Below, in pieces: positions 2,136-28,339 of a stretch of DNA of 64,000 nt. This DNA comes from Parcubacteria group bacterium (lineage in GTDB: Bacteria > Patescibacteriota > Minisyncoccia > Moranbacterales > UBA2206). Both the position numbers and the translations under genes were made by a program. The stretch spans positions 189,274 to 253,273 of the forward strand of contig JBAZYF010000001.1 in the NCBI GenBank assembly GCA_041659505.1, given 5' to 3'. The notes beneath the pieces were generated by a model, which saw nothing but the letters and a program-made list of their open reading frames with translations, was not told where the DNA came from and ran no database searches. Within the stretch, counting starts at the first letter, position 1, and every line of letters begins with the position of its first letter.

Positions 2136-5100
2136 CTACTGAAAATTCAACGCACTAGAATTATTATACAATTGCTTCACTTGTTCGGCGGTGAGGGCGT
2201 AGTTGAAAATTTTGACTTCGTCGATTTGGCCGGAGAAGGGATATGACGGATTCATAGATCCTACTGATACATCACCAGCGTGAAGGTTCCAGTATTTATC
2301 TTCTGACGCCATAAATGCTCCATTTTTATATAAATAAACATCTACGCCGTCATAAACAGCAACAACATGGGTCCAAGTGTTCAAGGGTTGAGTGCCAAAA
2401 GATGTGGGATAATAATCATCACCATAGCTTATAACTCCCAGATAATCATTATCATTAATGGCAATTCCAAATATACCAGCATACCCGGTTTCCCCATACC
2501 AAGCCAATGCTTCAGTATAATTCTGGTCAGCGGTTCTATTAAACCATAATGACATAGTTCTTGGAGCAAAACCTATAGGCAAGTTACTTCCTGATGCTGT
2601 CACATAATCATCCCCCCCATCAAAATTCAAACTGGCGCCGTATTTTCCGGTTCGGCCGTTGTACCAGGGGGTGTTGGCGTTGGCGGAGCAGGTGCCGGCG
2701 GTGGTTTGGCCGGAAGCGCCAAGATTAATCGTGCCATCGTTGCCGTTGCCGGATTCGTCGTGCACTGTGCTTCCCTGACATTCATTAAACCGCCACGCCG
2801 CGACCGGTTTGCCTTGATTATATTCCCAAGCAATCTGCGCCGGTGTGCGGGCGTAGTCATAGATGCGGACTTGGTCGATTTGGCCAGGGAAATAATAAGA
2901 ACTGCCAAGAGAGTTTCCAAAACGCACCGGATAACCTCCAGTATCAAGCGTTTCCGTCGCACTGCCGGCACTTTTTCCATCAACATAGATTTTTTGCGCG
3001 TTACTCGTGCTAGTAAAAGCGACATAGTGCCATTTATTATCCAGCACATCAATGCTGGAAGTCGCACTGCCAGAAGAATCCCCATCAGCAATACAAGTGA
3101 TTGTGTTTCCGCTATACCCAGCTATGCAAGATACGCCAAGCTTACTAACAGTTCCTCCGTATGCGCCGGGCGATCCCTTAAGCCAGAAAGAATATGTTGC
3201 ACCGTTTACAAAAGCAAAATTGTTAGCAGACTCAATATAATCATCCACCCCATCAAACGCGCAAGCTGAGCCGTATTTGCCTTGGGCGGCGCAGTTCATT
3301 CCGGTGGCATTGGCCCCATAATGCGTCGTGCCGTTGTTGCCGTTTCCGCTGGTGTCATAGATCGTTTGATTGTCGCCAGCCACTTTTTCATCCATCTTCC
3401 ATTCCCCCACCGGCGTGGCGCAAGCGGTTGTGTCGCCCGGGACACAATATTTTCCGCTCGAGGCATTAGTCGGCGCGCCGGTCGTCGAGACCGATCCGCC
3501 AGCGCCCATCTGCGCCGACACTCCGGAGTTGTAGTCGGTTTTGATTTCGTCTTCGGTGAGAGCGTAGGGGTAGATTTTGAGATCGTCGAGTTCACCGTTA
3601 AAATAATAGATCGGAACAGCTTCGGAGCTATCTCTTCCAATACTCAAAGGCATCGCTGAATAACTTAGCGCTTGCCCCGGGCCATAGCCATTGGCAGTAT
3701 ATATCATTGAAGTTTCTTTTCCATCCAGATACGCTTTTGCATCTGAAGAATTTCCATTTGTCGGAGAAAATGTCACGACAAGATGGTGCCAAACGCTATC
3801 GGTCACTGAACCAGTCGGCAAGTCCCAATAGGGATAGGCTGATCCTGTCATAATTTCAAATCGCGCATGACCATCATTCATCACGAGCAGTGAATAACTT
3901 TTATTAGAGCTTGTATCCACCGGCTTGTTTACAATTATGCCCGAATCATTTGGAGCCCTTTTTAGCCAGGTAGAAATTGTCAGCGAACTTGGTCGAAGCG
4001 CTGTGCTATCTGACACGTTCACATAATCATTCCCATCAAAACTAAGCGCCTTGCCATTTTTGCCGTCATTGGTCCAAGTTGGCGAGGATGAGCCGACGCC
4101 TAGGTTTCCGGCCAAACTTGTTCCGCCAAAACCGGAATTATGCGCCAAAGAGCCGTAGCCTTCGTTGAAATCATACACAGCGACTGGGTTGTGTTCGCCA
4201 TTGTTCATGTCCTCCAAAATCTGCTGTTGCGTGCGGGCATAGTTGTAGATGCGGAAATCATCAATAGCGCCATCAAAATACCTACTTCCAAATTGCGCAC
4301 CAATTTGCATACTACTACCATCATCAACCGTCCCCGCCACCTGGCTATTTTGAAAAACTCCATCAACATAAAGACTGTTGTTAGTACCCGCATGCAGAAA
4401 TTCTATGTGATGCCAGTTTCCACCACCCACAGCCACATTGGAGACAAGATCACTTCCACCGGGTATAGCAAAAGCAATTTTATTGCCATAGCCCATGGAA
4501 GAATTTAAAACTGCATAGAAATACCAGCCTCTAGTAAATAGCACCGAATTGACTGTTGTATCTTTGCTTTTTGTCCAGAACGAAATTGAAAAATTAGGTT
4601 CCAAGGAAAATGCCGGAATATCCACAACATCATCCACCCCATTAAAGCTCAGCGCCGTGCCGTATTTCCCTGATACAAATGGCGCTGTTACATTCTCAAC
4701 ATTTCCGCCTTCCCAATCATCAATCCGTCCGCTAGTTCCGTACAGTAAAACAAAACCTGACGAACCGCTGGTCAAATTGCTGTCGACATAACTAGTTTTT
4801 TCCACGCCGTTGATATAGCCTTTGAGTGTATTCCCCACGACTGCGAACTTAAAGATATCACCATTGGCCGGCGCAGATATGACCACATTTGCAAGTGTCG
4901 AATTGGAACCGCCAAGTGAGCGACCAAGTATCATCCTCCAACTTCCATCATAAAAAACAAATGCGTAGTAAGTATTTTGAGTAGACCCATCTGATCGACT
5001 CAGGAGACTATATTCCGTGTCGGCATTAACTGTATCTAGTTTTATCTGGGAATATTGATCGGCATTTAAGCTATTAGCATTCCAAATAAAAACACTCGCG

Positions 5101-8057: not shown

Positions 8058-8447
8058 TTACTTAATATATCTTCTAACTTCCAAACTTTTTGCTCCGAAA
8101 TTAATCAATAGTCCTACTTTAACTTTATAGGCTTCAATGTAATTTATCAACTGAGCAACATTTACTTCTTCCAGTTTTGTGATGGCTTTTAGTTCTACCA
8201 TGATGTCACCATCAACTAGGAAATCGACTCTTCTTTTACCAATCATCGCGGATTCGTAAAAGATATCCATTTCTTTCTCTCTTTCAAATTTCAAATCTTC
8301 TTTGCTAAATTCTATTTCCAGTGCGCGTTGGTAGATTACCTCTTGAAATCCATTGCCTAGATACTGATGAACTTTTTGCGCACAGCCGATAATCTTTCCG
8401 GTTATGTCGGATTTGTAGTATTTATTGTTGGCATATGTCTGAACCAC
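8058..8447 (-). CDS. GxxExxY family protein (PD-(D/E)xK nuclease superfamily; family known from 23S rRNA intervening sequences)
   Basis: GFQEVIY matches the GxxExxY motif; ~125 aa size; C-terminal GLLINFG. ORF begins at a GTG that lies inside the direct repeat. Confidence 0.7.
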   Translation of the reverse strand: MVQTYANNKYYKSDITGKIIGCAQKVHQYLGNGFQEVIYQRALEIEFSKEDLKFEREKEMDIFYESAMIGKRRVDFLVDGDIMVELKAITKLEEVNVAQLINYIEAYKVKVGLLINFGAKSLEVRRYIK

Positions 8448-8543: not shown

Positions 8544-11500
8544 CTACTGGAAATTCAACGCGCTAGAATTATTATACAGTTGCTTGACTTGTTCGGCGGT
8601 GAGGGCGTAGTTGAAAATTTTGACTTCGTCGATTTGGCCGGGGAAAAAATAGCCATTATTTGAACTACCTAAATAAAGAGGAACTGAATCGCTGGATACA
8701 ATATTGCCAGTAGCAGCGGCATGATTTCTTGCGATGCCATCAACATAAATATAGACATTCGCTCCATCATAAATTCCCGTAATAAAATGCCAACTATTGT
8801 CCCAAACAATATTTCCTGAATCACCAGAAATAACTCCTCCGCTATTCGTAGTATGGACTCCGAACTGTAAATTTCCCGCACTTCCGGTGTACAATAAGTA
8901 CCCATAGCTCAAAGGAGCATCGCTTTTCCACACTAACCCTTCCCAATTTCCTGGGCTACTACTTTTTGCCCACATTGATACTGTCATACTATTCCCTGTT
9001 ATGTTCAAACTTGAACTATTGCTCACCAATGCCCAATCATCCCCCCCATCAAAATTCAAACTGGCGGCGTATTTTCCGGTTCTTCCATTATACCACGGTG
9101 TATTAGCATTGGCACTACAGGTGCCGGTGGTGGTTTGGCCGGAGGCGCCGAGATTTAATGTGCCGGTGTTGCCATTGCCACTGTCATCATGAATCGCCGT
9201 TCCCTGACACTCATTCATCCGCCACTCGGCAATCGGCCGCCCTTGATTATATTCCCAAGCAATTTGTGCCGGCGTGCGGGCGTAGTTGTAGATGCGGACT
9301 TGGTCGATCTGGCCGCCATAAGGATGCTCCCCGATCTGGCTATTGCCGATAGCGAGACCATAGCCGGTTACTGGAGTTCCGGTGTTTGAAGATCCTGACT
9401 GGGCGCCGTTTATATATAAGGTTCCTGTACCATTGCTTAAGCGCACTCCACAAACATACTGCCAAGTATTCAAATTTAAAGTTTTATCCGAAATTACAGC
9501 GCTAGATCCGTCATCGCTAGTTAAAGCCAAATTAGCTCCGTGATTATAGCTCATGAAAACAAATCTTGAGTTGCTGACTATCCCATCAAAAACATTCTTG
9601 CCCTGTGGTTTTATCCAGGCGCAAACAGTGACGGTGTTGGTGGAAATCAGATCAGTTCCGAGAGCCGCATAATCATCCACCCCATCAAACGTGCAGGCTT
9701 TGCCGACTTTTCCCGGTTGGGTGCAATCCATCCCGGTGTTGTTGGCGCCGTCAACGGTTGTGCCGTTGTTGCCGTTGCCGGAAGTGTCGTTGAGGTTTTT
9801 AGCGTCGCCAGATACTTTTTCATCCATCAGCCATTCCCCCACCGGTGCTGAGCATGTCGAAGTGTCGCCCGGCACGCAATACTGGCGTGAGTCGGAATTG
9901 CTAGGAGCGCCAGCCGAAGTCGTCCCGGAACTCCCCACCACTGCTGAGTAGCCGGAGTTGTAGTCGGATTTGACTTCGTCTTCGGTGAGGGCATAATTAT
10001 ATAATTTGACATCATCAAAAACCCCGCCAGCGTAGGCTGGTGAATTATCGAGCGATCTTCCACCAATAATTATTTTTTGGGCTGTTAGGGATTCAATGTC
10101 TCCCGAAAGAGCAAGGCTCGCTTCCAATTTTCCATTAATAAATATTTTTTTAGTATCACTACTGTCAAAAGAAAATACAAAATGATACCATTGTCCGCTT
10201 TGCATAACTGTTGTCCCAGTAGTATCGTGATAACTACCAATCCAATCACTGAAATGAGCTTTATGATCAGGATCTACAGCAACGACCCACTCACCACCCC
10301 AATCACCGCCATTAAAATATTTTGATATTTCACATGATTCCCCTGCGGTCGGCTTGCACCAATAGGAAACGGAAAATTCCGGACGAGCGCCATATGTTCC
10401 TGCATCGACATAATCATTCGTCCCATCAAAACTAAGCGCCTTGCCGTTTTTGCCGTCATTAGTCCAAGTCGGCGCGGATGATCCGACACCTAAGTTTCCA
10501 GCTAAACTTGCACCGCCATAACCGGAATTATGTGCTACAGAGCCGTAGCCTTCGTTGAAATTGTAATTGGCGATTGGTTGACTATTGCCTCCTCCGCCTG
10601 CTGGCTCCGGCGTGCCAAGCATATCATCCAAAATCTGCTGTTGGGTGCGGGCGTAGTTATATACACGGACGTCGTCGATTAATCCTAGAAAAGGATCCTC
10701 GGAAGGACCACTCGCGATATAAAGATCATAGCTAGTATTACCCACCGCCAAATAACTGCCCCAATCATAAGTGTAGGTATTTACACCGTCTACATAATAG
10801 ACAACCTTATAGCCATCATAGGTGGCAGAAACAAAATGCCATTTTCCATCCGTCACAACAGTTGGCGCATTTTGCGCTCTGAACGTTCCGCCGGAAAGAA
10901 TATACAAATACAACCTGCCCAGAGTATCCGTTCCAAACCACCAGCCATTGTCGTTATAGAGTTGCTTTTTGGCAAATAAATTCCAACCTGCGTGAGAACT
11001 ATTAATCCACATGCCGACCGACACGGTGCCGGAACTTTGCAAGCTGGAACCATTGCCACAATTTATCCAATCATCCACCCCATCAAAATTGCAAGCTGAA
11101 CCAAACTTGCCCGGCACAGTGCAATCCATTCCAGTGGTGTTGGCGCCGTAGTGGGTGGTGCCGTTATTGCCATAAGTCGAATCATCAGCAATCGTTTTTG
11201 CGTCCCCTTGTACTTTTTCATCCATCTTAAGATGCAAGACCGGCCCGGGTGCCCATTCGTAGAGTTTTTTAATTTCAGAAGGAGAAAGCGCGCGGTTGTA
11301 GATACGGGTTTCGTCGATTTTTCCCGGAAAATAATAATTACCTCCACCAATATATTCCCCCATTCTAACATTTGGGGTGAGTAAAGATAACGTAGCCGAA
11401 GTTTGATTATTTTTTTCGCCGTTTAGGTACATAATCAGATTCTTTCCCGAAAAATCATACACTATTGAAAAATGATACCAAGTATTCTGGGTAATTGTTC

Positions 11501-13868
11501 CGGTGCTTGAAAGATATAATCCATCAGCGGGGTCTTGAAAGTTTAACTGATTTGAAGTAATATGAATTTGTTTTTGAAAATCTAAATCAATAATATGATC
11601 TTCGGAAGTATCATTAACATTTCGATAGAACCAGCCAGAAATCGAAAAACTATTGTCGAATGCTGTTGCATCATTTAAAGCACCTACATTTACATAATCA
11701 TCCCCCCCATCAAAACTCCCCCCATTGCCAAATTTTCCTCCCGCAGTCGTAACGCCTCCGGCGGATGTTCCGTTATTATTGTTGTCACTAGCGTCTTTCA
11801 CTTCCCCGCTCGTGCCGCTCCAACTCGCTTCGTCCATTTTCCAATAACCGACCAGGCCGTCGGTGAGCCATTTTGTTGATTCGGAGCCAAAGGCAGCCGA
11901 CGCGCCTTGGGGGGCGCTTTGGCTTGCCAAGCCGGCGTTATAATCCTGCAAAATCTGCGCTTGCGTGCGGGCGTAGGGGTAGATTTTTGGTTCGTCGATG
12001 GAGCCTTGAAACAATGAATCTGTATTAACTGCTCCACCACCAAACCAAGCGCCTATCCGCAATTTATCACCTGTAGGAATTGAAGCAGAACTGGAATCTG
12101 TCCCTTTACTCACACCGTCTAAATACATTTCAAAGTCGTTGCCACTCCGGGTTAAAATGATGTGATGCCATTGATTAGTGGATGGGTCAACTCCGAGAGA
12201 AAAATACAACTGGCCTATTCCGCTGGTTCCAAACCAAAACTCCATGGCCGAATCTCCGCTATTATAAAACCATTCCCAGTCCATACTACCATATTCATCC
12301 CGCTTGCTCATCAATGTTTTATATGCGGATCCCGTTGTCCATGTTTTAGAATTAAACCAAAGAGAAAGAGTAAAATCTCCTGTCATATCAAGACTGCTAT
12401 CGTTGCCCATATCCACATAATCACTCGTCCCATTAAACGAAAGACACTTCCCACTCACACAATCACTCTCCGGCTTCCACGTCGCCCCGGTGATGCTGCC
12501 GTCATTTTTGTTGGCACTTTCATCGTGCGCGACCGCGCCTTGACCTTCATCGAATGACCAATAGGCGACCGGGGCTGGCGATATTTCTTCGGTTCCCAGC
12601 GCGCCAACAGAATAGGTTGACGCTTCGGTGGAGAAATTGGTGGGGAAAATTGTGTAGGTATAGTTAGAAGTATCATTGCGATTGAAACCACTTTCCTCAC
12701 TCGTCCAATTGAATGTCGAGCCATTTTGGGTCGAAGTGATGGTGGTGCCGGTAACAGAGGGAGAAATAATCTGCCTAGCAGAGGCATCATCCACTCTAAA
12801 ACTCTTGCCGACTGGTGAGATGGGGCTCCACCAGTTTGGATCAATGCCTTGAGCTATATCTGCTTTTGTCCTGTACCCACCACAACTAGTCCAGGCTGTA
12901 TCGCCACTGTCAATAGAACATAAGTTATAATAATCAAAAGTTTGGAAAAGACAAGCACCATCTGTTTGATCAACATTGCGCAGCCAGATACTCATATAGT
13001 AAAGTGCACCGGACGTAAATATGATATCCGATGAGGCCCCTGCCGTATTGCCAGTTGCCAAAACATTCAACGAATACGCTCCTGAGCTCCCCGGCCTCGG
13101 ATCAGTCACTCGACTGAGTGTCGCGTACCAGGCATGCCAATCGGAAGGCGGATCGCCAGTTTCAAATCCGGGATTTAATACTAATTCGCTTCCCAGCGAC
13201 TCCCCTGACCCCGCCGCCTTGATATAGCCAATCAATTCTAATCCTGCATTATCGGCAATAAACAGTTTGCTATTCAAATTATTAGTGAGAACGTTGGCAG
13301 CAGAAAAATCGACAAAAGCGGTGCCGTTAACAATGGATAGTTTCATATTCGCTTGCGTCACTGCTCCCGTCTGCGTCTGAGTAAAACCATTTTCCGCACC
13401 GGGGTTGCCATAATATTCCCAAATGGCTTGCTCACCTGCCGGGAAAGTTTCAAAGCTGACATAGACCGAAGTATTGGCCGTTCCGCAACCGGAAACAATC
13501 AGATAGGGCATAACCTTGCCGTCATTCTTGGTGAAACGCAAATCTCCGCAATCGGCTTGGAATTTAGTCGTGTCGGAAGTGTCCACGGTGAGCGCGACAT
13601 AGACATTCGTTTGCACTGCTCCGCTGTTGGTCAGTTGGATTGATTTGCGAAAGGCCCATTTTTCATCCCACCAGGAAGCTTCGGTGCTTCTGCCAGAAAG
13701 CCAGAAGTAAATTGGTAAAATTATTATCACTAATAAAATGGCCAGGGCGAGGGTTTTGGCTTTTTTGGATTGAAAAATTCTTTTCAAAAATTTGGCGAAT
13801 TTAAACAGGCCACGGATGAGGTGGAGCATTAGGCGTTGGAATTTTTGTTTGAGGGTTGGCATTTTCAA
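8544..13868 (-). CDS. giant cell-surface protein LamG2: TM + DUF2341-like + six LamG domains, 1,774 aa
   Basis: same domain motif order as LamG1; N-terminus MKMPTLKQKFQR..., identical C-terminus; real start may be the second ATG (13862). Confidence 0.85.
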   Translation of the reverse strand: MKMPTLKQKFQRLMLHLIRGLFKFAKFLKRIFQSKKAKTLALAILLVIIILPIYFWLSGRSTEASWWDEKWAFRKSIQLTNSGAVQTNVYVALTVDTSDTTKFQADCGDLRFTKNDGKVMPYLIVSGCGTANTSVYVSFETFPAGEQAIWEYYGNPGAENGFTQTQTGAVTQANMKLSIVNGTAFVDFSAANVLTNNLNSKLFIADNAGLELIGYIKAAGSGESLGSELVLNPGFETGDPPSDWHAWYATLSRVTDPRPGSSGAYSLNVLATGNTAGASSDIIFTSGALYYMSIWLRNVDQTDGACLFQTFDYYNLCSIDSGDTAWTSCGGYRTKADIAQGIDPNWWSPISPVGKSFRVDDASARQIISPSVTGTTITSTQNGSTFNWTSEESGFNRNDTSNYTYTIFPTNFSTEASTYSVGALGTEEISPAPVAYWSFDEGQGAVAHDESANKNDGSITGATWKPESDCVSGKCLSFNGTSDYVDMGNDSSLDMTGDFTLSLWFNSKTWTTGSAYKTLMSKRDEYGSMDWEWFYNSGDSAMEFWFGTSGIGQLYFSLGVDPSTNQWHHIILTRSGNDFEMYLDGVSKGTDSSSASIPTGDKLRIGAWFGGGAVNTDSLFQGSIDEPKIYPYARTQAQILQDYNAGLASQSAPQGASAAFGSESTKWLTDGLVGYWKMDEASWSGTSGEVKDASDNNNNGTSAGGVTTAGGKFGNGGSFDGGDDYVNVGALNDATAFDNSFSISGWFYRNVNDTSEDHIIDLDFQKQIHITSNQLNFQDPADGLYLSSTGTITQNTWYHFSIVYDFSGKNLIMYLNGEKNNQTSATLSLLTPNVRMGEYIGGGNYYFPGKIDETRIYNRALSPSEIKKLYEWAPGPVLHLKMDEKVQGDAKTIADDSTYGNNGTTHYGANTTGMDCTVPGKFGSACNFDGVDDWINCGNGSSLQSSGTVSVGMWINSSHAGWNLFAKKQLYNDNGWWFGTDTLGRLYLYILSGGTFRAQNAPTVVTDGKWHFVSATYDGYKVVYYVDGVNTYTYDWGSYLAVGNTSYDLYIASGPSEDPFLGLIDDVRVYNYARTQQQILDDMLGTPEPAGGGGNSQPIANYNFNEGYGSVAHNSGYGGASLAGNLGVGSSAPTWTNDGKNGKALSFDGTNDYVDAGTYGARPEFSVSYWCKPTAGESCEISKYFNGGDWGGEWVVAVDPDHKAHFSDWIGSYHDTTGTTVMQSGQWYHFVFSFDSSDTKKIFINGKLEASLALSGDIESLTAQKIIIGGRSLDNSPAYAGGVFDDVKLYNYALTEDEVKSDYNSGYSAVVGSSGTTSAGAPSNSDSRQYCVPGDTSTCSAPVGEWLMDEKVSGDAKNLNDTSGNGNNGTTVDGANNTGMDCTQPGKVGKACTFDGVDDYAALGTDLISTNTVTVCAWIKPQGKNVFDGIVSNSRFVFMSYNHGANLALTSDDGSSAVISDKTLNLNTWQYVCGVRLSNGTGTLYINGAQSGSSNTGTPVTGYGLAIGNSQIGEHPYGGQIDQVRIYNYARTPAQIAWEYNQGRPIAEWRMNECQGTAIHDDSGNGNTGTLNLGASGQTTTGTCSANANTPWYNGRTGKYAASLNFDGGDDWALVSNSSSLNITGNSMTVSMWAKSSSPGNWEGLVWKSDAPLSYGYLLYTGSAGNLQFGVHTTNSGGVISGDSGNIVWDNSWHFITGIYDGANVYIYVDGIARNHAAATGNIVSSDSVPLYLGSSNNGYFFPGQIDEVKIFNYALTAEQVKQLYNNSSALNFQ

Positions 13869-13910: not shown

Positions 13911-13945
13911 GGGCATTATTTTTCACCTCGTCTTGGGTTAAATTT
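13900..13945. promoter_or_regulatory. direct-repeat array of CCTCGTCTTGG half-sites (~27-bp spacing, 3 copies including the PE arm) in the LamG2 leader
   Basis: cctcgtcttgggcattatttttcacctcgtcttgggtta; parallels the 4-copy array at 21148-21250. Confidence 0.5.
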
Positions 13946-15666: not shown

Positions 15667-18600
15667 CTACTGGAAGTTGAGCGCGCTAGAATTATTATAC
15701 AATTGTTTCACTTGCTCGGCGGTGAGGGCGTAGTTGAAGATTTTGACTTCGTCGATTTTTCCTCCAAACGGATAACTAGAATATGTATTATCACCCATAA
15801 AAACATCGCCTGACGAATCATCAATCCTGGTGCCGCTTCCCCTGTTAGTATATGCAGCTACTATCTCTTCTCCGTTTATAAATAAATGAACACTATTAGC
15901 GCCTATCCCGCCGGAATAGACACCACAAACATACTGCCAGCTATTAAAGACTATTAAATTATCTGGCGTTTCCCTTAAAGCAATATAGTCACTCGTCGTA
16001 TTTGCAATTGACATGCCTAAGTGATTAGTATTCCAGATATACAAATCCCACCCAAAATAAGAGAGGCCATGTTTTGCAACAATCAAGGCATCAGTTTTAG
16101 TCGGATAAATCCAGGCGCAAGCTGAAAATGTTGCCATATTATCCAATGCTACTGGCGATCCCGCATTCACATAATCCCCCACCCCATCAAAATTCAAACT
16201 GGCGCCGTATTTTCCGGTTCGTCCGTTGTACCAGGGGGTGTCGGCGTTGGCACTGCAAGTGCCGGCGGTTGTTTGACCAGAGGCGCCCAGATTGATCGTC
16301 CCGTCATTACGATTCAAACTTTCATCATGCACCGTCGCGCCTTGGCATTCATCAAAATTCCACTGCGCCACCGGTTGCCCTTGGTTATATTCCCAAGCAA
16401 TTTGCGCCGGAGTGCGGGCGTAGTTGTAGATGCGGACTTGGTCGATTTGGCCGGTCCAATAATCTGCGCTAGTCGCTGGATCTTTTCCAACCGTAAGATT
16501 ATAAACACCCGAAACGACATCTAGGGTTTGGGCGACCGGAGTGGCCGCGGATATGCCATCAACATAAATTCTAAGATAACTGCCATCAAATGTTCCAGCA
16601 ACGTAGTGCCACGAATTATCATTGTAGCCATTTTTATCGCTCACAATATATATATAGCTACTTGAATCATGTAATTGCAAAGCAAAATCACCGGGATTAT
16701 CACCATTGGCAAATAACATATATCCATTTCTGTCAGTATCCCAGTTAGCATTTCCGACTATTGCTGGCCAATTTACTGTACTAGTAGTAAATTTAACCCA
16801 AGCCGAAACTGTTCCAGTGTGGGTCAGCTGGATTGATGGATCATTTCCCAGATCCGCATAATCGTCCACCCCATCAAAGCTACACGCTGTCCCCGCTTTT
16901 CCCGGTACACTACAATCCATTCCGGTTGTATTGGCGCCGTAATGTGTTGTGCCGTTGTTGCCGTTGCCTGATGTGTCATAAATCGTTTTTGCATCGCCTT
17001 TGACTTTTTCTTCCATCTTCCATTCCCCCACCGGCGCGGCGCAAGCGGTTGTGTCGCCCGGCACGCAATATTCTCCTCCGGCGGAATTGGTCGGCGCGCC
17101 AGTCGAAGCGGCCGTGCCCGCCGAACCCCACTGCGCCGAAGCACCGGAGTTGTAATCGGTTTTAATTTCGTCTTCGGTGAGAGCGTAGGGGTAGATTTTG
17201 ACGTCGTCAAGCTGTCCACCGAAATAATTTATCGGAGGATCATATGAGTTATTTCTGCCAATATTTAAATCATCCGATGAATATTGTAATGAACCTCCTG
17301 CCCCATAACCATTTGCCGAATAAATTGTTGCGATTTCCTTACCATCAATATATGTTTTTGAATCTGAAGCATCTCCCCGCACTGGAGAAAATGTCACCAC
17401 CAGATGGTGCCAATTATTATCTGGATATGGGAGTGTGCCGCATGGCGTTTCCCAATAGGGATAACCGTTGTTTGTTTGTATTTCAAAATGCGTTCCTCCT
17501 GCATATAGACACGTAGTGGAGAAAGAATAACTCTTTCCTGAAGTAGTGCCGTAGGCCTTATTTATCATCGTTCCACCCCCCCCATTTTGTTTTATCCAAG
17601 TAGAAAGTGTAAGTGCAGCCGGACGTAGGGCTGTACTATCCGGCACGCTGACATAATCATTCACCCCATCAAAACTCAAAGCCTTGCCATTTTTGCCGTC
17701 ATTAGTCCAAGTCGGCGCGGATGAGCCGACGCCCAGATTTGCATTCGTAGAGACGCATTGCGATGCGTCTCTACAACCCAGCCCGGAATTATGCGCCACA
17801 GAGCCGTAGCCTTCGTTGAAATCATAATTTACAATTGGTTGGCCATTGCCACCTCCGCCTGCTGGCTCCGGCGTGCCAAGCATATCCTCTAAAATCTGCT
17901 GTTGGGTGCGGGCGTAGTTGTAGATTCTCACATCATCCATTTTTCCTTTGAGCGCTTCATCCCAACTTGAGGTGCCAAAAACAAAACCGGCATTATCATT
18001 AGCAATTGGCGCTTCATTGCCCGTACCGCTAACCCAGCTTCCACTTACCGGGTTTCCATTCAAAAAAGCCTTGATGGAACTGCCTTGCCCGAAAGTATAT
18101 TCGAGGGTGAGATACGACCACTCATTCAATGGCACACCAGCACTAGCTACCTGCCACGACGACCAATCAGAATTATCCACTCGACGATAATAAAGAGTCG
18201 GATAAGCTCCAATTAGCGCAAAGCCATAGTTTTCATTCAATGTGGCTCCTTTGAAAATAAGATTGCTCTCACCGGCATATGCTTCGGGATTGACCCAAAG
18301 GGAAATTGTAATCGTTTTGCCCAATTGGAAATCATAGGGGCTGTTAGTGCCGGAATCAGGAAAATTCGCTTCATCGGGAACGCTACTGTCGAAAACTAGT
18401 GCACTGCCATATTTTCCCGTTGTCCAAACCGGGTCCTCGGCTTCGGCGGAACTGGTCGTACCCAAAACTCCTTCTCCAGTCGGTTGCTCGGAATTATAGA
18501 AATTCTGACCGGTTTTTTCATCAAATTTCCAATAGGCTACCGGGCCGGGTGCCCACTGGTAGAGTTTTTTAATTTCAGCGGGCGAAAGCGCGCGGTTGTA

Positions 18601-21162
18601 GATGCGGGTTTCGTCGATTTGGCCATCAAAAAAATAAGTAGTCATTTGGCCAATTTGAGCGCCGTTTCCCGAATCAGCTCCAGTATTTATATCTGGAACA
18701 CCTGTTGAAATTCTTGTACCCTGACTCACGCCATTAACAAAAACTTCTTGCAATTTCGTATTACGTTTAAATGTGGCAACAATATGATACCAAGTATCTG
18801 CTTCCATTAACTTAACATTATCAAAATCATCACCATAAAAACCAAAGGTTAGATTATTACTATTACCTCTAATCCCTAATGAAACGCGCCTATCAGTGCC
18901 ATTTGCATCGCCTATGTCAAAAAACCATTGATATCTATCAAGAGTATCTATTTTAATCCATGATTCAATTGAAAAATCGCCCGTATCAAAAGTATTAATA
19001 TATGGTGCTTGCACATAATCATCCACCCCATCAAAACTCCCCCCATTCCCAAATTTTCCTCCGGCGGTCGTGACGCCTCCGGCGGATGTTCCGTTATTAT
19101 TGTTGCCACTGGCATCTTTCACTTCTCCGCTCGTGCCGTTCCAACTCGCTTCGTCCATTTTCCAATAGCCGACCAGGCCGTCGGTCAGCCATTTTGTTGA
19201 CTCTGAACCGAAAGCAGCCGACGCGCCTTGGGGGGCGCTTTGGCTTGCCAAGCCTGCATTATAATCCTGCAAAATCTGCGCTTGCGTGCGGGCGTAGGGG
19301 TAGATTTTAACTTCATCGATATAGCCGGGAAAAAATTCGTGGTAAGAGCCACTTGAATAATAGGCTCCGATGATGACCTGCTGATCATTGACAACATTTA
19401 TACCCCCGCCATATGATCCATTATATTGAGAATCAAACTTGCCATTAATATAAAGCTTCTGATAACCAGTCGTCGCATCGTATGTTGCAGACATATAGTA
19501 CCACTTATTAATTTCCAGTGTCCCACCGACTAAATAGTCTCCGGTTATTACTGGCTGCTCTGTTTCATCCAGAGTGGTATAATAATTGAAAGTATCCAAT
19601 CCTTTATTTACAACAGTCTTAAAATTCGCATTATCCGCTGTCAATTTGATCCAATGACTGACAGTATAGCCATTGGGTGAATCCAGTGAATTACTATCTG
19701 GAATTGTCGCATAAGCGCTGGTTCCGTTGAAATATAGACACCCTCCACTCACACACTCACTCTCCGGCTTCCACGTCGCACCGGTGATGGTGCCGTTGTT
19801 TTTGTTTGATGTTTCGTCGTGCGCCGTTGTGCCTTGGCCTTCGTCGAATGACCAATAGCCGACCGGTCCGCCGGGGCTAGTTTCCTGCTTTCCCGAAACA
19901 GTCAAAAACGCCAATGGATTATTCTGATTAGCATATTCCGTGGCGATCCATTCGGGGTTGCGGACAGTGTTGGAAATTTTAACTTCTTCAATGCTTCCTG
20001 GAAATTGACTTGTATAACCCTGCCTCGCTCCAATAACAAACCCGTTACCAATGTGCCAAGGATCATCAATATCAGTCGGTCCCGCAACAAGATTGCCATT
20101 GATATATAACTTTGCCATATTATCAACGTCTATTGTCGCACAAACATATTGCCACTGGTCAAGTATGATACTGCCATTTGCACTATTTAGAACGCCTCGA
20201 TTATTATAAATGTTTAAATAATAAACCCCACCATCATTACCCATATTAAACTCGAAATCAGCATCACCAATAAATTGAGACATCCAACTATCATCCGCTT
20301 GTGGCTTTATCCAAGCGCAACCCGTTATCGGATAATCATCCAAGTCAACAGCTGTATCCACATAATCATCCCCCCCATCAAAATCCAACCCTTTCCCCAC
20401 TTTCGCGTCAACCGAATCCCCACTCGTCATTGTGCCATTACTTGTTCCATTGTTCGCGTTAGCGGTGGAGTCCAGCATTTGCGGAGCCGTGCCCGAAGGA
20501 TCCTGGTTCATATGTTGGACCATTTTGTAGTTTCCATCCCACACATTCATTTTGTCTTGTTGGCTAGTGGCGGTAGCATTGCCATAGTAAAGATAAATTT
20601 CCGTATCTTTGGCTTGAGTGAGATTGGGTAATTTTACCCAAGCAATGAGGGCGCCAGTGCCGGAGGTGTAGGATTCGATTTCGTGCGAGAGTTTTTTTCC
20701 GGTGGAATCGGTGAATACCAAATCATCGCCGTCTGTTTGAGCACCGGTGATGAGATTGGTGTCCGTGATGGAAACTAGCACCGGAAAGTTTTGCAACTCC
20801 CCTGCCACTTGGGATTTATTGATGGTGATTTTTTTGCGAAATCCCCAAGTGTCGTTCCACCAGGAGGCTTGGGTGTTTCTTCCTGAGAAGAAAAAATAGA
20901 TGGGTAAAATTATGAGGACGAGAAGAATGGCAAGGGCTACTTGCCTGTAAGCCACCCAGTGGCGCAAGCTTGCGCCACCGGGTGGCTTCGGAGAACCGGA
21001 AGTTAAGGTCGGACCTTTTGGGTGCCTAAGGTCCGACCTTAGTTTTTTCAAAAATCTGGCAAATTTAAACAGGCCACGGAGGATGGTTAGCATTGTGCGT
21101 TGGAATTTTTGTTTTAGGGTTGGCATTTTTGAATTTTTTGTTTCCCTGTAGAGACGAGGCAC
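15667..21162 (-). CDS. giant cell-surface protein LamG3: TM + DUF2341 + six LamG domains. The ORF-caller start is a GTG inside a PE; the likely true start is the ATG at ~21126 (MPTLKQKFQR...)
   Basis: N-terminus after residue 12 matches LamG1/2. DUF2341 signature ASWWNDTWGFRKKITINKSQV...NFPVLV...YLYYGN. Six LamG motif repeats; shared C-terminus. Confidence 0.85.
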   Translation of the reverse strand: MPRLYRETKNSKMPTLKQKFQRTMLTILRGLFKFARFLKKLRSDLRHPKGPTLTSGSPKPPGGASLRHWVAYRQVALAILLVLIILPIYFFFSGRNTQASWWNDTWGFRKKITINKSQVAGELQNFPVLVSITDTNLITGAQTDGDDLVFTDSTGKKLSHEIESYTSGTGALIAWVKLPNLTQAKDTEIYLYYGNATATSQQDKMNVWDGNYKMVQHMNQDPSGTAPQMLDSTANANNGTSNGTMTSGDSVDAKVGKGLDFDGGDDYVDTAVDLDDYPITGCAWIKPQADDSWMSQFIGDADFEFNMGNDGGVYYLNIYNNRGVLNSANGSIILDQWQYVCATIDVDNMAKLYINGNLVAGPTDIDDPWHIGNGFVIGARQGYTSQFPGSIEEVKISNTVRNPEWIATEYANQNNPLAFLTVSGKQETSPGGPVGYWSFDEGQGTTAHDETSNKNNGTITGATWKPESECVSGGCLYFNGTSAYATIPDSNSLDSPNGYTVSHWIKLTADNANFKTVVNKGLDTFNYYTTLDETEQPVITGDYLVGGTLEINKWYYMSATYDATTGYQKLYINGKFDSQYNGSYGGGINVVNDQQVIIGAYYSSGSYHEFFPGYIDEVKIYPYARTQAQILQDYNAGLASQSAPQGASAAFGSESTKWLTDGLVGYWKMDEASWNGTSGEVKDASGNNNNGTSAGGVTTAGGKFGNGGSFDGVDDYVQAPYINTFDTGDFSIESWIKIDTLDRYQWFFDIGDANGTDRRVSLGIRGNSNNLTFGFYGDDFDNVKLMEADTWYHIVATFKRNTKLQEVFVNGVSQGTRISTGVPDINTGADSGNGAQIGQMTTYFFDGQIDETRIYNRALSPAEIKKLYQWAPGPVAYWKFDEKTGQNFYNSEQPTGEGVLGTTSSAEAEDPVWTTGKYGSALVFDSSVPDEANFPDSGTNSPYDFQLGKTITISLWVNPEAYAGESNLIFKGATLNENYGFALIGAYPTLYYRRVDNSDWSSWQVASAGVPLNEWSYLTLEYTFGQGSSIKAFLNGNPVSGSWVSGTGNEAPIANDNAGFVFGTSSWDEALKGKMDDVRIYNYARTQQQILEDMLGTPEPAGGGGNGQPIVNYDFNEGYGSVAHNSGLGCRDASQCVSTNANLGVGSSAPTWTNDGKNGKALSFDGVNDYVSVPDSTALRPAALTLSTWIKQNGGGGTMINKAYGTTSGKSYSFSTTCLYAGGTHFEIQTNNGYPYWETPCGTLPYPDNNWHHLVVTFSPVRGDASDSKTYIDGKEIATIYSANGYGAGGSLQYSSDDLNIGRNNSYDPPINYFGGQLDDVKIYPYALTEDEIKTDYNSGASAQWGSAGTAASTGAPTNSAGGEYCVPGDTTACAAPVGEWKMEEKVKGDAKTIYDTSGNGNNGTTHYGANTTGMDCSVPGKAGTACSFDGVDDYADLGNDPSIQLTHTGTVSAWVKFTTSTVNWPAIVGNANWDTDRNGYMLFANGDNPGDFALQLHDSSSYIYIVSDKNGYNDNSWHYVAGTFDGSYLRIYVDGISAATPVAQTLDVVSGVYNLTVGKDPATSADYWTGQIDQVRIYNYARTPAQIAWEYNQGQPVAQWNFDECQGATVHDESLNRNDGTINLGASGQTTAGTCSANADTPWYNGRTGKYGASLNFDGVGDYVNAGSPVALDNMATFSACAWIYPTKTDALIVAKHGLSYFGWDLYIWNTNHLGMSIANTTSDYIALRETPDNLIVFNSWQYVCGVYSGGIGANSVHLFINGEEIVAAYTNRGSGTRIDDSSGDVFMGDNTYSSYPFGGKIDEVKIFNYALTAEQVKQLYNNSSALNFQ
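17747..17774. repeat. PE copy inserted in frame inside the LamG3 CDS (GTAGAGACGCAT-tgcg-ATGCGTCTCTAC)
   Basis: encodes CRDASQCVST. Paralogs LamG1/LamG2 have ..SLAGNLGVGSS.. here with no palindrome; flanking DNA aligns on both sides. Confidence 0.8.
20951..21040. repeat. two further palindromes inserted in frame in the LamG3 N-terminal region: 36-bp palindrome centred on AAGCTT, and a paired AAGGTCGGACCTT/AAGGTCCGACCTT
   Basis: adds ~35 aa (LRSDLRHPKGPTLTSGSPKPPGGASLRHWVAYRQV) absent from LamG1/2/4 between the basic leader and the TM helix. Confidence 0.7.
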
Positions 21163-21172
21163 TGCCTCGTCT
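21148..21172. repeat. PE copy GTAGAGACGAGGCA-c-TGCCTCGTCTTAGG, ~20 nt upstream of the LamG3 ATG
   Basis: gene strand: ...CGTCTCTACagggaaacaaaaaattcaaaaATG. Confidence 0.75.
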
Positions 21173-21250
21173 TAGGTTAATATTTTCACCTCGTCTTGGA
21201 CATTATTTTTCATCTCGTCTTGGGTTAATATTTTCACCTCATCTTGATGT
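21173..21250. promoter_or_regulatory. iteron-like array, ~4 copies of TTAATATTTTCACCTCGTCTTGG (~27-bp period)
   Basis: ttaatattttcacctcgtcttggaca / ttatttttcatctcgtcttgggttaa / tattttcacctcatcttgatg seen directly. Confidence 0.55.
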
Positions 21251-25700: not shown

Positions 25701-27990
25701 GCCCATTAATATAAAGTTTCTGACTAGTAGAATCTGACACTAAAACTACATGGGTCCATTTTCCTACAATGTTACCCGATGTAATTGAATTCAGATTATG
25801 ATTTGAACCATCATAAATATTTGATACTACTACTCCGGACGATGTAATACCTACCCACGCATCTGATGAAGCCACATTCACTGCTCTATTATTAGAAACG
25901 CCGCTGGGTGCTACGGACGGCTTTATCCAGGTAGATATTGTTATATTAGGGAAAAGCGCCGGGCTCATTGGATTTTTTATTACATAATCATCCACCCCAT
26001 CAAAACTCCCCCCATTCCCAAACTTTCCCCCGGCGGTTGTGGCGCCTCCGGCAGATGTTCCGTTATTATTGTTACCGCTAGCATCAATCACTTCCCCACT
26101 CGTGCCGTTCCAAAGACTCTCGTCCATTTTCCAATAACCGACCAGGCCGTCGGTGAGCCATTTGCTTGACTCTGAACCGAAAGCAGCCGACGCGCCTTGG
26201 GGGGCGCTTTGGCTTGCCAAGCCTGCATTATAATCCTGCAAAATCTGCGCTTGCGTGCGGGCGTAGGGGTAGATTTTTGGTTCGTCAATGGAGCCGGAAA
26301 AGAAATCATAATATCCGCCCTGATCATCCGCGCCGACAACAACCTTATTAGAATTAGAAATAATGGCACCACTAGGATTTCCGGTATTAACATCCTGTTT
26401 TCCATTAATATACATCTTGCACATTGATCCATCGTAAGTCGCCATTATATGATACCAAGTATTTACCGATAATGCAGTAGCGGAAGTTATATAAACTGTC
26501 CAGCCACCCTCTGATGTTTTTAAAAGAAATAAAACATTTCCATCGGAATTTATGTCTATTTTATATTCTTGCTCTTTGCCAGCAATTACATAAATATTTC
26601 CTAGCGAAGGAGTTGCATTTATTTTTACCCAAGCTCCAATAGTAAGGGTAGAAAGTCCACTTAAGCCAGTTGCATTACCCATATCCACATAATCACTCGT
26701 CCCATCAAATCCCAAACACTTCCCACTCACACACTCACTCTCCGGCTTCCACGTTGCACCGGTGATGGTGCCGTCGTTACTGCTTGAACTTTCATCGTGG
26801 GCAGTCGTTCCTTGGCCTTCGTCGAATGACCAATAGCCAACCGGTCCGCCGGGACTTTGTTCCACTTTTCCACTGACCGACAAAAACGCCGAAGGGTTGT
26901 TTTGATTGGCATATTCGGTGGCGATCCATTCGGGGGTGCGGACGGAATTGGAAATTTTTACTTCTTCAATATTTCCTGGAAATTGACTTGTATAACCCTG
27001 CCTCGCTCCAATAACAAACCCGTTGCCAGCGTGCCAAGGATCATCAATATCAGTCGGCCCCGCAACAAGACCGCCATTGATATATAACTTTGCCATATTA
27101 TCAACGTCTATTGTCGCACAAACATATTGCCACTGATCAAGTATGATGCTGCCAAATGCACTATTTAGACCGCCTCGATTATTATAAATGCTTAAATAAT
27201 AAGCCCCACTATCATTACCCATATTAAACTCGAAATCAGCATCACCAATAAATTGAGACATCCAATTATCATCCGTTTGTGGCTTTATCCAGGCACAACC
27301 CGTAATCGGATAATCATCCAAGTCAACAGTCGTATCAACATAATCATCCGTCCCATCAAAATCCAACCCCTTCCCCACTTTCGCGTCAACCAAATCCCCA
27401 CTCGTCATTGTTCCGCCCGAAGTTCCATTATTAGCATTGCTCGTCGAATCAGTCATCTGCGGAGCAGTGCCCGAAGGATCCTGATTCATATGTTGCACCA
27501 TCTTGAAATTTCCATCCCACACATTTGTTTTGTCTTGCTGGCTCGTCGCCGTAGCATTGCCGTAATAAAGATAAATTTCCGTGTCTTTGGCTTTGGTTAA
27601 ATTTGGCAATTTTACCCAAGCAACCAGAGCGCCCGTGCCGGAAGTATAAGATTCAATTTCGTGCGACAGTTTTTTGCCGGTGGAATCCGTGAACACCAAA
27701 TCATCGCCGTCGGTTTGTGCGCCGGTGATGAGGTTGGTGTCGGTGATGGAAACGAGGACAGGAAAGTTTTGCAGTTCGCCCGCCACCTGAGATTTGTTGA
27801 TGGTGATTTTTTTTCTGTAGCCCCAGGTGTCGTTCCACCAGGAGGCTTCGGTGTTTCGGCCGGAGAAGAAAAAATAGATGGGTAAAATTATGAGGACAAT
27901 TAAAACAAGCGACAACAAAGCACGCTTTTTGCGAGGAGAGAAAAGACGGCGGGTGTAATTTTTAATTTTGAATTTTGAATTTTGAAACAA
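22729..27990 (-). CDS. giant cell-surface protein LamG4: TM + DUF2341 + six LamG domains; 5' end atypical (TTG start inside a repeat, conserved MPTLKQKF leader missing)
   Basis: DUF2341 block nearly identical to LamG3. Shared C-terminus. No in-frame ATG before the TM helix; the N-terminus is encoded by the AATTTTGAA repeats. Confidence 0.75.
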   Translation of the reverse strand: MFQNSKFKIKNYTRRLFSPRKKRALLSLVLIVLIILPIYFFFSGRNTEASWWNDTWGYRKKITINKSQVAGELQNFPVLVSITDTNLITGAQTDGDDLVFTDSTGKKLSHEIESYTSGTGALVAWVKLPNLTKAKDTEIYLYYGNATATSQQDKTNVWDGNFKMVQHMNQDPSGTAPQMTDSTSNANNGTSGGTMTSGDLVDAKVGKGLDFDGTDDYVDTTVDLDDYPITGCAWIKPQTDDNWMSQFIGDADFEFNMGNDSGAYYLSIYNNRGGLNSAFGSIILDQWQYVCATIDVDNMAKLYINGGLVAGPTDIDDPWHAGNGFVIGARQGYTSQFPGNIEEVKISNSVRTPEWIATEYANQNNPSAFLSVSGKVEQSPGGPVGYWSFDEGQGTTAHDESSSSNDGTITGATWKPESECVSGKCLGFDGTSDYVDMGNATGLSGLSTLTIGAWVKINATPSLGNIYVIAGKEQEYKIDINSDGNVLFLLKTSEGGWTVYITSATALSVNTWYHIMATYDGSMCKMYINGKQDVNTGNPSGAIISNSNKVVVGADDQGGYYDFFSGSIDEPKIYPYARTQAQILQDYNAGLASQSAPQGASAAFGSESSKWLTDGLVGYWKMDESLWNGTSGEVIDASGNNNNGTSAGGATTAGGKFGNGGSFDGVDDYVIKNPMSPALFPNITISTWIKPSVAPSGVSNNRAVNVASSDAWVGITSSGVVVSNIYDGSNHNLNSITSGNIVGKWTHVVLVSDSTSQKLYINGQYDNSNSVGALNWEGDSRFQIGGISDNAPYDFNGQIDETRIYNRALSPDEIKKLYEWAPGPVLHLKMDEKVQGDAKTLADDSTYGNNGTTHYGANTTGMDCTTPGKFGSSCNFDGVDDYVSVPNPVAMIDLSQKTFSASAWVKNSTDYVPFLTKGASNNVSWYLTADEAGRIQFGINRDTDLRIVTNSVIPGDGKSHFVAVSFLGGDDVSGVSIYLDGTKVTGYQSQQNGVGAYVSDSGQELRIGRDDWGGYCGGQIDDVRIYNYARTQQQILEDMLGTPEPAGGGGNGQPIAHYNFNEGYGSVAHNFGYGGAVLNANLIAGGGANNSVALMWEKNGKNGKAVEFDGDDDYAEVPDNALLDFGANDFSVSFWVNKKSACSNWNNVWGVNKWDTGSSPGNNEWVINLCSDGETDKFFFAIESGSTSYTVVDPDTHSLNNWYHVVGLREGTNLKLYVDGKNKKTTSIGTVSVNNAGRSLRIANSNANSYYTNALFDDVKIYPYALTEDEIKTDYNSGASAQWGSAGTVATTGSPTNSTSGVYCVPGSTEPCAAPVGEWLMDKKVAGDAQTIYDTSGNGNNGTTNDGANNTGMDCTVPGKVGSACSFDGVDDATDTGNFSIGSSSFTVSGWIKAAIRSQNNYFINQQSGSGQRWYLATNHDDGRLIFYSDVTGWVLGNNTIPNNQWTHFSIVETPSSTKFYLNGLLDKGDGAGGCNASLNNLPIQIGHNTNSGSFLNGSIDQVRIYNYARTPAQIAWEYNQGKPIAEWKFDECQGGTVHDNSGNGNNGTINLGASGQTTTGTCSANANTPWYNGRTGKYAASLNFDGGDDYADIGDVSLLDGATSLTISFWYFLSSGATLAITPLEKWETNPSYIITSFTGNHPYVAVRQTSSAVASYYWVTDYTWEKEKWVHFTWTWKAGSPTINHVYIDGVDKALTSELDMGPSSVGNSPDHLKFGNAMNGQIDDIKIFNYALTAEQVKQLYNNSSALNFQ

Positions 27991-27994
27991 GTCT

Positions 27995-28339
27995 TTAATC
28001 TTTTAATTTTGAAACAATTTTACCGAATATCAAGGTTAGCTCTTGGCATTCTTTCCAAACATTTTTGAGTTCTTCTTTTTTACTTGGTTCGCATTCTGCT
28101 AGCATGCGCAACCAGTGTTTTGTTTCTTGCGTTTCTTTTTTGGAGATAAAAATTTTATTTCTAAAATCTTTTTTCGAACTAGCCGCGTTGGCTTCCATAT
28201 AGTTAGCACCAATACTAGTTGCGGAACGAACTATTTGATTGATAATTGGCTTATTAATGGAATCTTGTTTTATATTTTTGCATAACTTGATGACTTCTAG
28301 GCCAAATTTTGCCGTACGCTCTTCTAAATCATATACCAT
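27995..28339 (-). CDS. four-helix-bundle protein of the 23S rRNA intervening-sequence protein family (Avd-like)
   Basis: RSATSIGANYMEA...SKKDFRNKIFISKKETQETKHWLRML matches the conserved core of this family (PF05635/TIGR02436); 114 aa. Confidence 0.75.
   Translation of the reverse strand: MVYDLEERTAKFGLEVIKLCKNIKQDSINKPIINQIVRSATSIGANYMEANAASSKKDFRNKIFISKKETQETKHWLRMLAECEPSKKEELKNVWKECQELTLIFGKIVSKLKD

Follow-up and report, generated by a model that had tools for sequence, protein, structure and literature searches.

The LamG3 gene (15667-21126, minus strand; DUF2341 and Laminin_G_3 repeats by Pfam on the called gene) lies in a 64,000-nt stretch of a Parcubacteria group bacterium genome (contig JBAZYF010000001.1, positions 189,274 to 253,273), referred to here as the window, whose coordinates are used throughout. 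Its 5' end carries a 105-nt segment that contains two hairpin-forming palindromes, M1 and M2, at a place where the paralogous genes LamG1 and LamG2 have only 30 nt. We conclude that this segment probably consists of two selfish miniature palindromic elements of the kind known as repetitive extragenic palindromes (REPs) and REP doublets forming hairpins (REPINs), lodged in a permissive, basic N-terminal tail. The reading is based on the association of M1-type elements with a transposase, on the occurrence of copies in unrelated genes and in both orientations, and on the presence or absence of copies among orthologues.

Anatomy of the LamG3 segment

The longest open reading frame (ORF) at LamG3 (15667-21162, minus strand) begins at a GTG codon, while the actual start is the ATG at 21126. 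A conserved basic leader, MPTLKQKFQR..LRGLFKFA.F.K (21046-21126, minus strand; MPTLKQKFQRTMLTILRGLFKFARFLKK), begins at this ATG and is also present in LamG1 (2136-8000), LamG2 (8544-13868), and L086, a related LamG gene of another organism that is described below, with synonymous differences between the copies. When the 5' ends of the four LamG genes of the window were aligned, the LamG4 leader was found to be unrelated to the other three. The LamG3-specific segment (20938-21042, minus strand; 35 codons, LRSDLRHPKGPTLTSGSPKPPGGASLRHWVAYRQV) replaces 10 codons of LamG1 and LamG2 (IF[QR]SKK[AI]KTL), a net gain of 25 codons that is in frame and free of stops. Sequence of the LamG1/2 type stands on both sides of it, resuming downstream as GCCCTTGCCATTCT, and the segment is therefore an indel within an otherwise homologous leader. 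It was recovered with 100% identity from four assemblies of different samples and so does not stem from faulty assembly. The original prediction, made from the letters of this DNA, had described about 105 bp and some 35 residues absent from the paralogues. The length holds for the segment itself, but the net gain relative to LamG1/2 is just 25 codons; that the segment is a real in-frame insertion built of palindromes is borne out by the alignment.

M1 (21005-21040) comprises AAGGTCGGACCTT, a 10-nt spacer, and AAGGTCCGACCTT, and is translated from the minus strand as RSDLRHPKGPT(L). In a repeat search of the window, it formed a perfect 14-bp stem together with its flanking bases. It is separated by a translated linker of 18 nt (20987-21004; AACTTCCGGTTCTCCGAA on the minus strand) from M2 (20951-20986), a 36-nt palindrome that reads GCCACCCGGTGGC, GCAAGCTTGC, and GCCACTGGGTGGC on the minus strand. 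On the plus strand, M2 is GCCACCCAGTGGCGCAAGC followed by GCTTGCGCCACCGGGTGGC, an 18 + 18 palindrome with a single mismatch at 20958/20979, which corresponds to a G.U pair on the minus (sense) strand and to A.C on the plus strand; the repeat search returned its arms as 21 nt at 95%. Both the pair of mutually reverse-complementary 13-mers and the near-perfect 36-bp palindrome with one mismatch are thus present as had been predicted. The two elements are built alike, each being 36 nt long and consisting of a 13-mer (itself a 6+1+6 palindrome), 10 nt, and the reverse complement of the 13-mer. The 13-mers are AAGGTC-S-GACCTT in M1 and GCCACC-S-GGTGGC in M2, and each element has arms whose centre bases complement each other. 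The predicted fold of the region has an energy of -73.9 kcal/mol on the minus strand (z = -9.6 against shuffled sequence) and of -69.1 kcal/mol on the plus strand (z = -7.9).

No U-run of the kind that marks an intrinsic terminator follows the M1 or M2 hairpin on the sense strand. The sole terminator-like call, 21026-21042 with TTTTTT, involves the right M1 unit and lies on the plus strand, antisense to LamG3. This signal is probably coincidental, because its T-run corresponds to lysine codons that are also present in the insert-free paralogues; terminator-like calls were no more numerous than expected from shuffled sequence. In Rfam, no family was reached, the best matches being generic miRNA-hairpin models with 26 bits against thresholds of 79-97.

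The M1 family and an associated transposase

Metagenomic sequences were scanned for the two M1 arms, of which 24 bases were fixed, at any distance from 0 to 30 nt. The pair was found in at least 120 contigs, with less than one match expected by chance. The family counts given in this section refer to the matches listed, which hold 129 non-overlapping elements on at least 120 contigs (loci are labelled L with a number). Many of these contigs come from groundwater samples, and the hosts are labelled Patescibacteria; no M1 was found in viral contigs. Neither M1 13-mer (AAGGTCCGACCTT, AAGGTCGGACCTT) was found in the literature, in a search that covered the 13-mers of M1 and not those of M2.

The core of the family is AAGGTCSGACCTT, with AAGG-N5-CCTT as a broader form. 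The flanks and loops of the elements are unrelated to one another, the spacer is most often 10-11 nt long, and the 13-mer rarely stands alone (ca. 264 of 274 copies are paired). Among the 87 elements borne by ORFs, 78 have arms with complementary centre bases and nine have arms with identical ones. The two arms are therefore true inverted repeats and not two independent binding sites. Compensated arm-pair variants are common. The flanks of the elements pair just slightly above chance. A flank profile of 116 elements contained no conserved GTAG or CGTC tetranucleotide; only an exclusion of G at positions -1 and -2, and of C at +1 and +2, was evident. Other cores of the same 13-spacer-13 design, GACCTGSCAGGTC, AAGGAGWCTCCTT, and CCACCCCGGGGTGG, are present in M1-bearing contigs, and the last of them is similar to the M2 core.

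Two deviating arrangements were seen. A solitary and perfect AAGG-N5-CCTT palindrome (AAGGGAGTCCCTT) lies at 61490-61502 of the window, downstream of a TrmB-like gene. In the GC-rich contig L091 (151-262), at least six copies of AAGGTCGGACCTT with identical centres are arranged head to tail in an open frame, unlike the usual inverted doublet. Other identities of the family were considered and rejected. A DNA-uptake or partition-type site does not agree with a density of ca. one per 60 kb, a 13-mer that is almost never single, and complementary centre bases. An operator pair for a dimeric regulator is at odds with the same complementarity and with the location of most copies inside ORFs. Insertion of the arms alone, with the loop supplied by host sequence, is contradicted by gaps in homologues that are at least as long as arms and loop together.

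The elements do not avoid genes. A stop-free frame of at least 150 codons contains 87 of the 129 elements (67%), compared with 76% of random 37-nt windows from the same loci, and we therefore conclude that the elements track coding density; M1-type elements are also present in intergenic DNA. Elements occupy all three frames, encoding RSDL, G[PR]T, or KV[GR]P, and the cores contain no stop codon in any of the six frames. With respect to the coding strand, elements lie either way round (45:33, p = 0.21). The same unit of arms and loop recurs in unrelated genes (L108 and L145, twice; L107 and L136; L072, L101, and L137). Comparisons among LigA, GatA, IscS-like, Dus-like, and TsaD homologues show gaps of 13-21 aa that coincide exactly with the element.

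Presence and absence were followed in a set of 120 LigA orthologues (P0148-P0267; Paceibacterota/Nomurabacteria, 665-758 aa, 67-80% identity). Three hot spots, near residues 193, 279, and 471 of P0148, vary among the orthologues: some have the element, some a decayed version of it, some another insert, and some none at all. What fills them differs by lineage, the range comprising doublets of the M1 type and decayed copies, single units (RSDF or GSDL), and other inserts; the latter also look palindrome-derived, e.g., PLLNKEGVKASPPLEGG and KGEVGRG. At the DNA level, L180 is insert-free at all three sites. One copy, with an identical loop, is common to the LigA genes of L064 and L181; its arms AAGGTCGGACCTT and AAGGTCCGACCTT in one gene correspond to AAGGTCGAACCTT and AAGGTTCGACCTT in the other, a compensated G>A/C>T pair. 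No target-site duplication was evident when filled and empty LamG and LigA sites were compared, the flanks being too diverged for certainty.

An ORF for a Y1_Tnp protein, with the motifs YYHIYNRG, NHFHFLI, RYIHLNP, and SSY, was found in 12 of the 120 M1-bearing loci, and 373 kb of control DNA contained none. In eight loci, no more than 31 nt separate the element from this ORF, and in L147 the gene is bracketed by two copies. In a ninth locus, L137, the Y1_Tnp gene is bracketed by inverted GCCACAA-AAGGTYSRACCTT-TTGTGGC hairpins. Four of the five proteins tested matched Pfam Y1_Tnp (IS200-like) above threshold; the only NCBIfam match was NF047646, the REP-associated tyrosine transposase, with 35-51 bits against a cut-off of 80. 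The linked transposases are 230-245 aa long and have 2525 homologous members at E <= 1e-10. Those members that are named by source are called transposases of Patescibacteria group bacterium, Candidatus Gottesmanbacteria, and Candidatus Collierbacteria, and one is a hypothetical protein of Candidatus Levybacteria. Four transposase loci were then selected solely for their long contigs, with the palindrome disregarded. All four genes have inverted AAGG-N5-CCTT 13-mers on both sides within 60 nt, and such units recur four to five times per surrounding 20 kb.

Since the transposase genes are flanked by AAGG-N5-CCTT units, the 13-mer can be regarded as a mini-REP and the M1-type pair as a REP doublet, i.e., a REPIN in the sense of PMC3337134. 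We conclude that M1 is a REPIN-like doublet that lacks a tag and is tolerated inside genes. It is not filed with the classical REPs, because there is no GTAG tag and because of the intragenic location; we treat it as a variant that works like them. The Y1 transposase would mobilise such elements as single-stranded DNA hairpins, as in IS200/IS605 and REP systems, without target duplication. In gene-dense genomes, selection would keep only those insertions that preserve the frame, are free of stops, and fall at permissive sites.

History of the insertion and alternative explanations

The same leader and the same block of M1, linker, and M2 are present in L086, a LamG gene on a Joint Genome Institute (JGI) contig from another organism. 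M1 is identical at 36 of 36 positions in the two genes and M2 at 35 of 36, the M2 of L086 being a perfect palindrome. Identity is lower in the linker (14/18), the leader (68/84), and the stretch on the transmembrane side (49/63). Excluding the arm bases that were used to find L086, the palindromes are changed at one of 46 positions, and flanks and linker together at 34 of 165 (Fisher p = 0.0014). The original prediction would have been contradicted by orthologues that carry the segment with ordinary substitutions; L086 does carry it, but the pattern of substitutions is not ordinary. The insertion is therefore not recent and appears to be older than the split between this strain and the organism of L086. 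Three of the four linker changes are synonymous in the LamG frame and the junction indels are 6 nt and 3 nt long, which argues that the block is translated. The hairpins would have stayed intact through selection for pairing or through hairpin-templated correction.

LamG3 is a mosaic that joins a leader of the LamG1/2 type to a body of the LamG4 type (19745-20919 versus 26723-27897, 88% identity over 1.18 kb); the leader with the insert precedes a body of the LamG1/2 type in L086. Comparison of the two mosaics indicates recombination among LamG paralogues near the signal anchor, and the insert would since have been carried between paralogue bodies by homologous recombination.

At LamG3, the insert would simply be translated, adding ca. 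25 residues rich in G, P, S, and T, with a net charge of +5, to a cytoplasmic and strongly basic tail. The insert peptide, with the stretches RSDLRHPKGPTL and PPGGASLRHW, is 43% G/P/S/T and lies between the basic leader and the only hydrophobic helix. This helix is the signal anchor (20884-20940, minus strand; VALAILLVLIILPIYFFFS, residues 63-81), with a maximal Kyte-Doolittle value of 2.83 over 19 residues. The N-terminal tail in front of it is 62 aa long, compared with 36 aa in LamG1/2, and contains 14 lysines and arginines and a single acidic residue. By the positive-inside rule, the N-in topology of the signal anchor should be unaffected. A homologue search with the LamG3 N-terminus returned six distant matches, one of which has a long leader with no evident relation to the insert. 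A search of 1.84 billion representative proteins with the 31-aa insert peptide returned one repeat protein, a chance similarity, and no relative.

M2 is assigned to the same kind of element as M1 on the strength of its identical architecture, and the assignment must be seen as provisional. The M2 core was found only at LamG3 and in L086. Several results count against regarding the segment as a pair of mobile elements. Apart from L086, no relative of M2 was found in 679 kb of M1-bearing loci. The M2 half-site, searched together with half of the loop, a pattern too strict for M2 relatives with other spacers, had 42 matches in species-representative genomes; all were single half-sites in GC-rich genomes and none was palindromic, so we attribute them to chance. 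In viral contigs, the M2 half-site had no match, and the M2-pair pattern matched only unrelated coding tandem repeats (GMPPGG). Neither 13-mer has a second copy in the window with up to two mismatches allowed, and neither core recurs there or in the adjoining ca. 13 kb, so that these sequences give no evidence of a high copy number in this genome. Nor does the window contain a transposase of the M1-linked clade, and the transposases that were found score below the cut-off of the curated model for REP-associated tyrosine transposases (RAYTs; 35-60 bits versus 80). M1 and M2 lack the GTAG or CGTC tag by which classical REPs are defined, and no transposition event, target-site rule, or duplication was definable. 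Finally, the far better conservation of the palindromes than of their flanks could mean a function for the host.

The alternatives are, by falling likelihood, a cis-acting structure, local template switching (mainly for M2), a downstream start codon, and an artefact. That the two hairpins are a selected cis-acting structure of LamG3 mRNA or DNA, their likeness to mobile repeats being secondary (exaptation), is unlikely. Such a structure could, for instance, stall translation ahead of the emergence of the signal anchor, provide a site for processing by RNase III, or serve as a signal for recombination or conversion by which leaders and bodies are shuffled among LamG paralogues. Conservation of the palindromes at 45 of 46 positions, against 79% identity in flanks and linker, is what such a structure would show, as are a sole mismatch that is G.U on the sense strand, arms that change by compensatory pairs, and a position at the boundary of a mosaic gene, the body being of the LamG4 type in LamG3 and of the LamG1/2 type in L086. 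However, dozens of unrelated genes contain this hairpin too, copies are also present in intergenic DNA and next to transposase genes, and the 45:33 orientation ratio is unbiased with respect to the coding strand. Three of the four LamG paralogues function without hairpins, no Rfam family matches, and the arms would also be conserved if the hairpin templated its own correction or if selection acted on the element itself.

We also consider it improbable that the palindromes, or at least M2, were never mobile and arose locally by template switching or snap-back synthesis during break repair, the likeness of M1 to other loci being convergence. M2 is confined to the LamG3 locus and L086, and its spacer is palindromic too, so that the 36-mer of L086 amounts to one perfect inverted duplication. 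Target duplication is not evident, and the M1 spacer and right arm have a weak similarity to the LamG1/2 codons that were replaced. Convergence, however, cannot explain the identity of the 26 arm bases of M1 in at least 120 other loci. M2 repeats the 13-10-13 design of M1 exactly, and the further cores GACCTGSCAGGTC, AAGGAGWCTCCTT, and CCACCCCGGGGTGG in M1-bearing contigs have the same design.

It is highly doubtful that the insert is untranslated, with LamG3 starting downstream of the hairpins (e.g., at the GTG at 20953-20955, to give a protein beginning with MAYRQV), the leader being a remnant and the open frame a matter of chance. This GTG is in frame within the 3' arm of M2, and ca. one in ten random insertions of this length would be in frame and stop-free. 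Yet LamG1, LamG2, LamG3, and L086 share a leader that is conserved as protein, with synonymous changes; both genes with the insert keep an open frame despite junction indels of 6 nt and 3 nt, and three of four linker substitutions are synonymous. A start codon inside an 18-bp stem without an upstream ribosome-binding site is unlikely as well. The chance of an assembly or library artefact (chimeric or hairpin-derived sequence), for which perfect palindromes are a known class, is negligible, given identity in four assemblies from different runs, the same segment with substitutions on the independent JGI contig, and frames left open by family members in 87 genes from many projects.

Returning to mobile elements of the REP/REPIN kind as the preferred explanation, we tentatively put forward a wider proposal, for which we claim rather less than even likelihood. 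AAGG-N5-CCTT and sister cores such as GCCACC-S-GGTGGC may constitute a Patescibacteria-wide class of untagged mini-REPINs with a Y1 transposase clade of its own. Such elements would colonise coding DNA almost as freely as intergenic DNA. Compensatory evolution would actively preserve their hairpins inside essential genes, and selection would act on them either as replicators or because the DNA or RNA serves some function of the host. In these streamlined genomes, the class may be a major source of insertion hot spots and protein length variation in LigA, GatA, TsaD, TopA-like, and LamG surface proteins.

Other repeats of the genome and known systems

The window is part of a 656-kb contig of a metagenome-assembled genome. 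Besides the four giant DUF2341/Laminin_G_3 surface proteins, it encodes three AAA_14/DUF4143 ATPases, a 7019-aa ORF, and housekeeping genes. Small genes lie directly upstream of LamG4 (27995-28339, minus strand; PF05635, '23S rRNA intervening sequence protein') and LamG1 (8058-8447, minus strand; PF13366, PDDEXK_3). Both are framed by local AT-rich direct repeats, and at LamG4 the site of the small gene is where the usual leader and promoter region are replaced.

A GTAG-tagged REP of the form AGACG[AT]GGCANTGCC[AT]CGTCT, with CTAC or GTAG on one side, is present in the window in 11 copies of ca. 21 nt (at 1020, 2008, 2066, 13889, 13993, 15598, 17751, 21152, 21312, 49431, and 49864). The copies frequently form inverted doublets (2008/2066, 13889/13993, and 21152/21312). 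Three are in frame within ORFs, namely an ATPase gene (250-1632; copy at 1020-1040), LamG3 (17751-17770), and the giant 7019-aa ORF (49431-49451); the ATPase copy is missing from the two paralogous ATPases. The copy at 21152-21172 overlaps the long GTG-started ORF of LamG3, yet it lies upstream of the ATG at 21126 and is non-coding. The further class of in-frame palindromes to which the original prediction had alluded is thus real in three ORFs, but this copy does not belong to it. The more general statement, that different palindromes insert in frame, likewise holds for the GTAG REPs; confinement to the LamG family does not, M1 being present in at least 120 contigs, in unrelated genes, and beside RAYT-like genes.

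No GTAG REP was found in the 120 M1-type loci listed. In its stem, the GTAG REP is similar to the GATAGAGAC-CSG-GTCTCTATC hairpins on either side of the L076 transposase gene. The left edge of the window cuts through a RAYT-like gene (1-17 and beyond; L182 11616-12278), which scores 59.8 bits against NF047646 (cut-off 80). This gene has the HUH motif NHTHM, is preceded by a GTAG hairpin at 97-117 (GTAGGGACAGAC cttgc GTCTGTCC), and contains in-frame hairpin copies encoding VGTDLVSVR and VGTDLASVR. Given the GTAG REPs and the RAYT-like gene at the edge of the window, this genome hosts REP-type elements. Direct repeats of CAAGACGAGGTGAAAATATTAAC (minus strand), which look like half-REPs with a fixed tail, are present in three copies at ca. 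21175-21245, just upstream of the GTAG REP before LamG3, and in one copy at ca. 13915-13940 before LamG2.

REPs and REPINs are usually treated as extragenic passengers and have been studied mainly in Proteobacteria. The family described here is tied to a REP-type transposase and is mostly intragenic, in the smallest and most gene-dense bacterial genomes; its copies are in frame and persist at orthologous sites, and their pairing is kept by compensatory change. It accounts for puzzling short insertions and length differences in proteins of the candidate phyla, and annotation and structure prediction should expect repeat-derived stretches of the RSDL...GPTL type. The odd leader of LamG3 requires no special biology of the LamG family. 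A 13-nt unit and a 36-nt doublet, together with a candidate enzyme, provide a compact and defined substrate for studying the action of REP-type transposases. The family also offers a natural setting in which to ask if elements of this sort are parasitic or are retained because of a function.

REPs and REPINs are mobilised by RAYTs, which belong to the IS200/IS605 HUH family (PMC3116915, PMC3337134). As in that system, short hairpin units are combined, two in inverted orientation with a short spacer, into a larger hairpin (a 14-bp stem in M1; an 18-bp stem with one G.U in M2). Other shared features are a large number of sequence sub-families, the lack of any evident target duplication, the persistence of copies at orthologous positions, and a single Y1 (HUH) transposase gene with inverted units on its flanks, the last being true of the M1 family and not of the LamG3 locus. 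Unlike in REPIN/RAYT systems, the M1-type unit is just 13 nt long, almost perfectly self-symmetric, and without a GTAG tag. Approximately two-thirds of M1-type copies are intragenic and in frame, near the expectation from coding density, in contrast to extragenic REPs. The linked transposases, of 230-245 aa, fall below the curated RAYT cut-off, the hosts are Patescibacteria, and each core is single-copy in the window.

REPs with GTAG or CGTC tags are mostly extragenic, intragenic copies being known as exceptions, and the CGTC REPs have no known transposase (Di Nocera et al. 2013, PMC3733652). Rickettsia palindromic elements (RPEs) are ca. 100-150 bp long and found in Rickettsia (Ogata et al. 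2000, as summarised in PMC10969869). Like intragenic REPs and RPEs, the elements studied here are palindromic repeats in frame in unrelated, often housekeeping genes; dimers add ca. 20-30 residues, some genes are hit repeatedly, and survival is thought to be limited to permissive sites. The present doublets differ in being 36-40 nt long and untagged, in belonging to another phylum, and in being linked to a transposase clade of their own. The peptide encoded by M1-type units, moreover, depends on the frame (RSDL, G[PR]T, or KV[GR]P), unlike the RPE, and is not one conserved peptide.

The bacterial interspersed mosaic elements (BIMEs) of Escherichia coli are extragenic mosaics of different GTAG-type REPs with fixed linkers and many copies. 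The block of M1, linker, and M2 is similar in that two different palindromic units stand side by side with a short linker and are inherited together, but this mosaic was found in just two related genes. MITEs, or miniature inverted-repeat transposable elements, are likewise small and non-autonomous, with inverted-repeat ends and a capacity for in-frame fusions; the elements studied here are far smaller, have no target-site duplication that could be seen, and are linked to a Y1 HUH enzyme and not to a DDE transposase.

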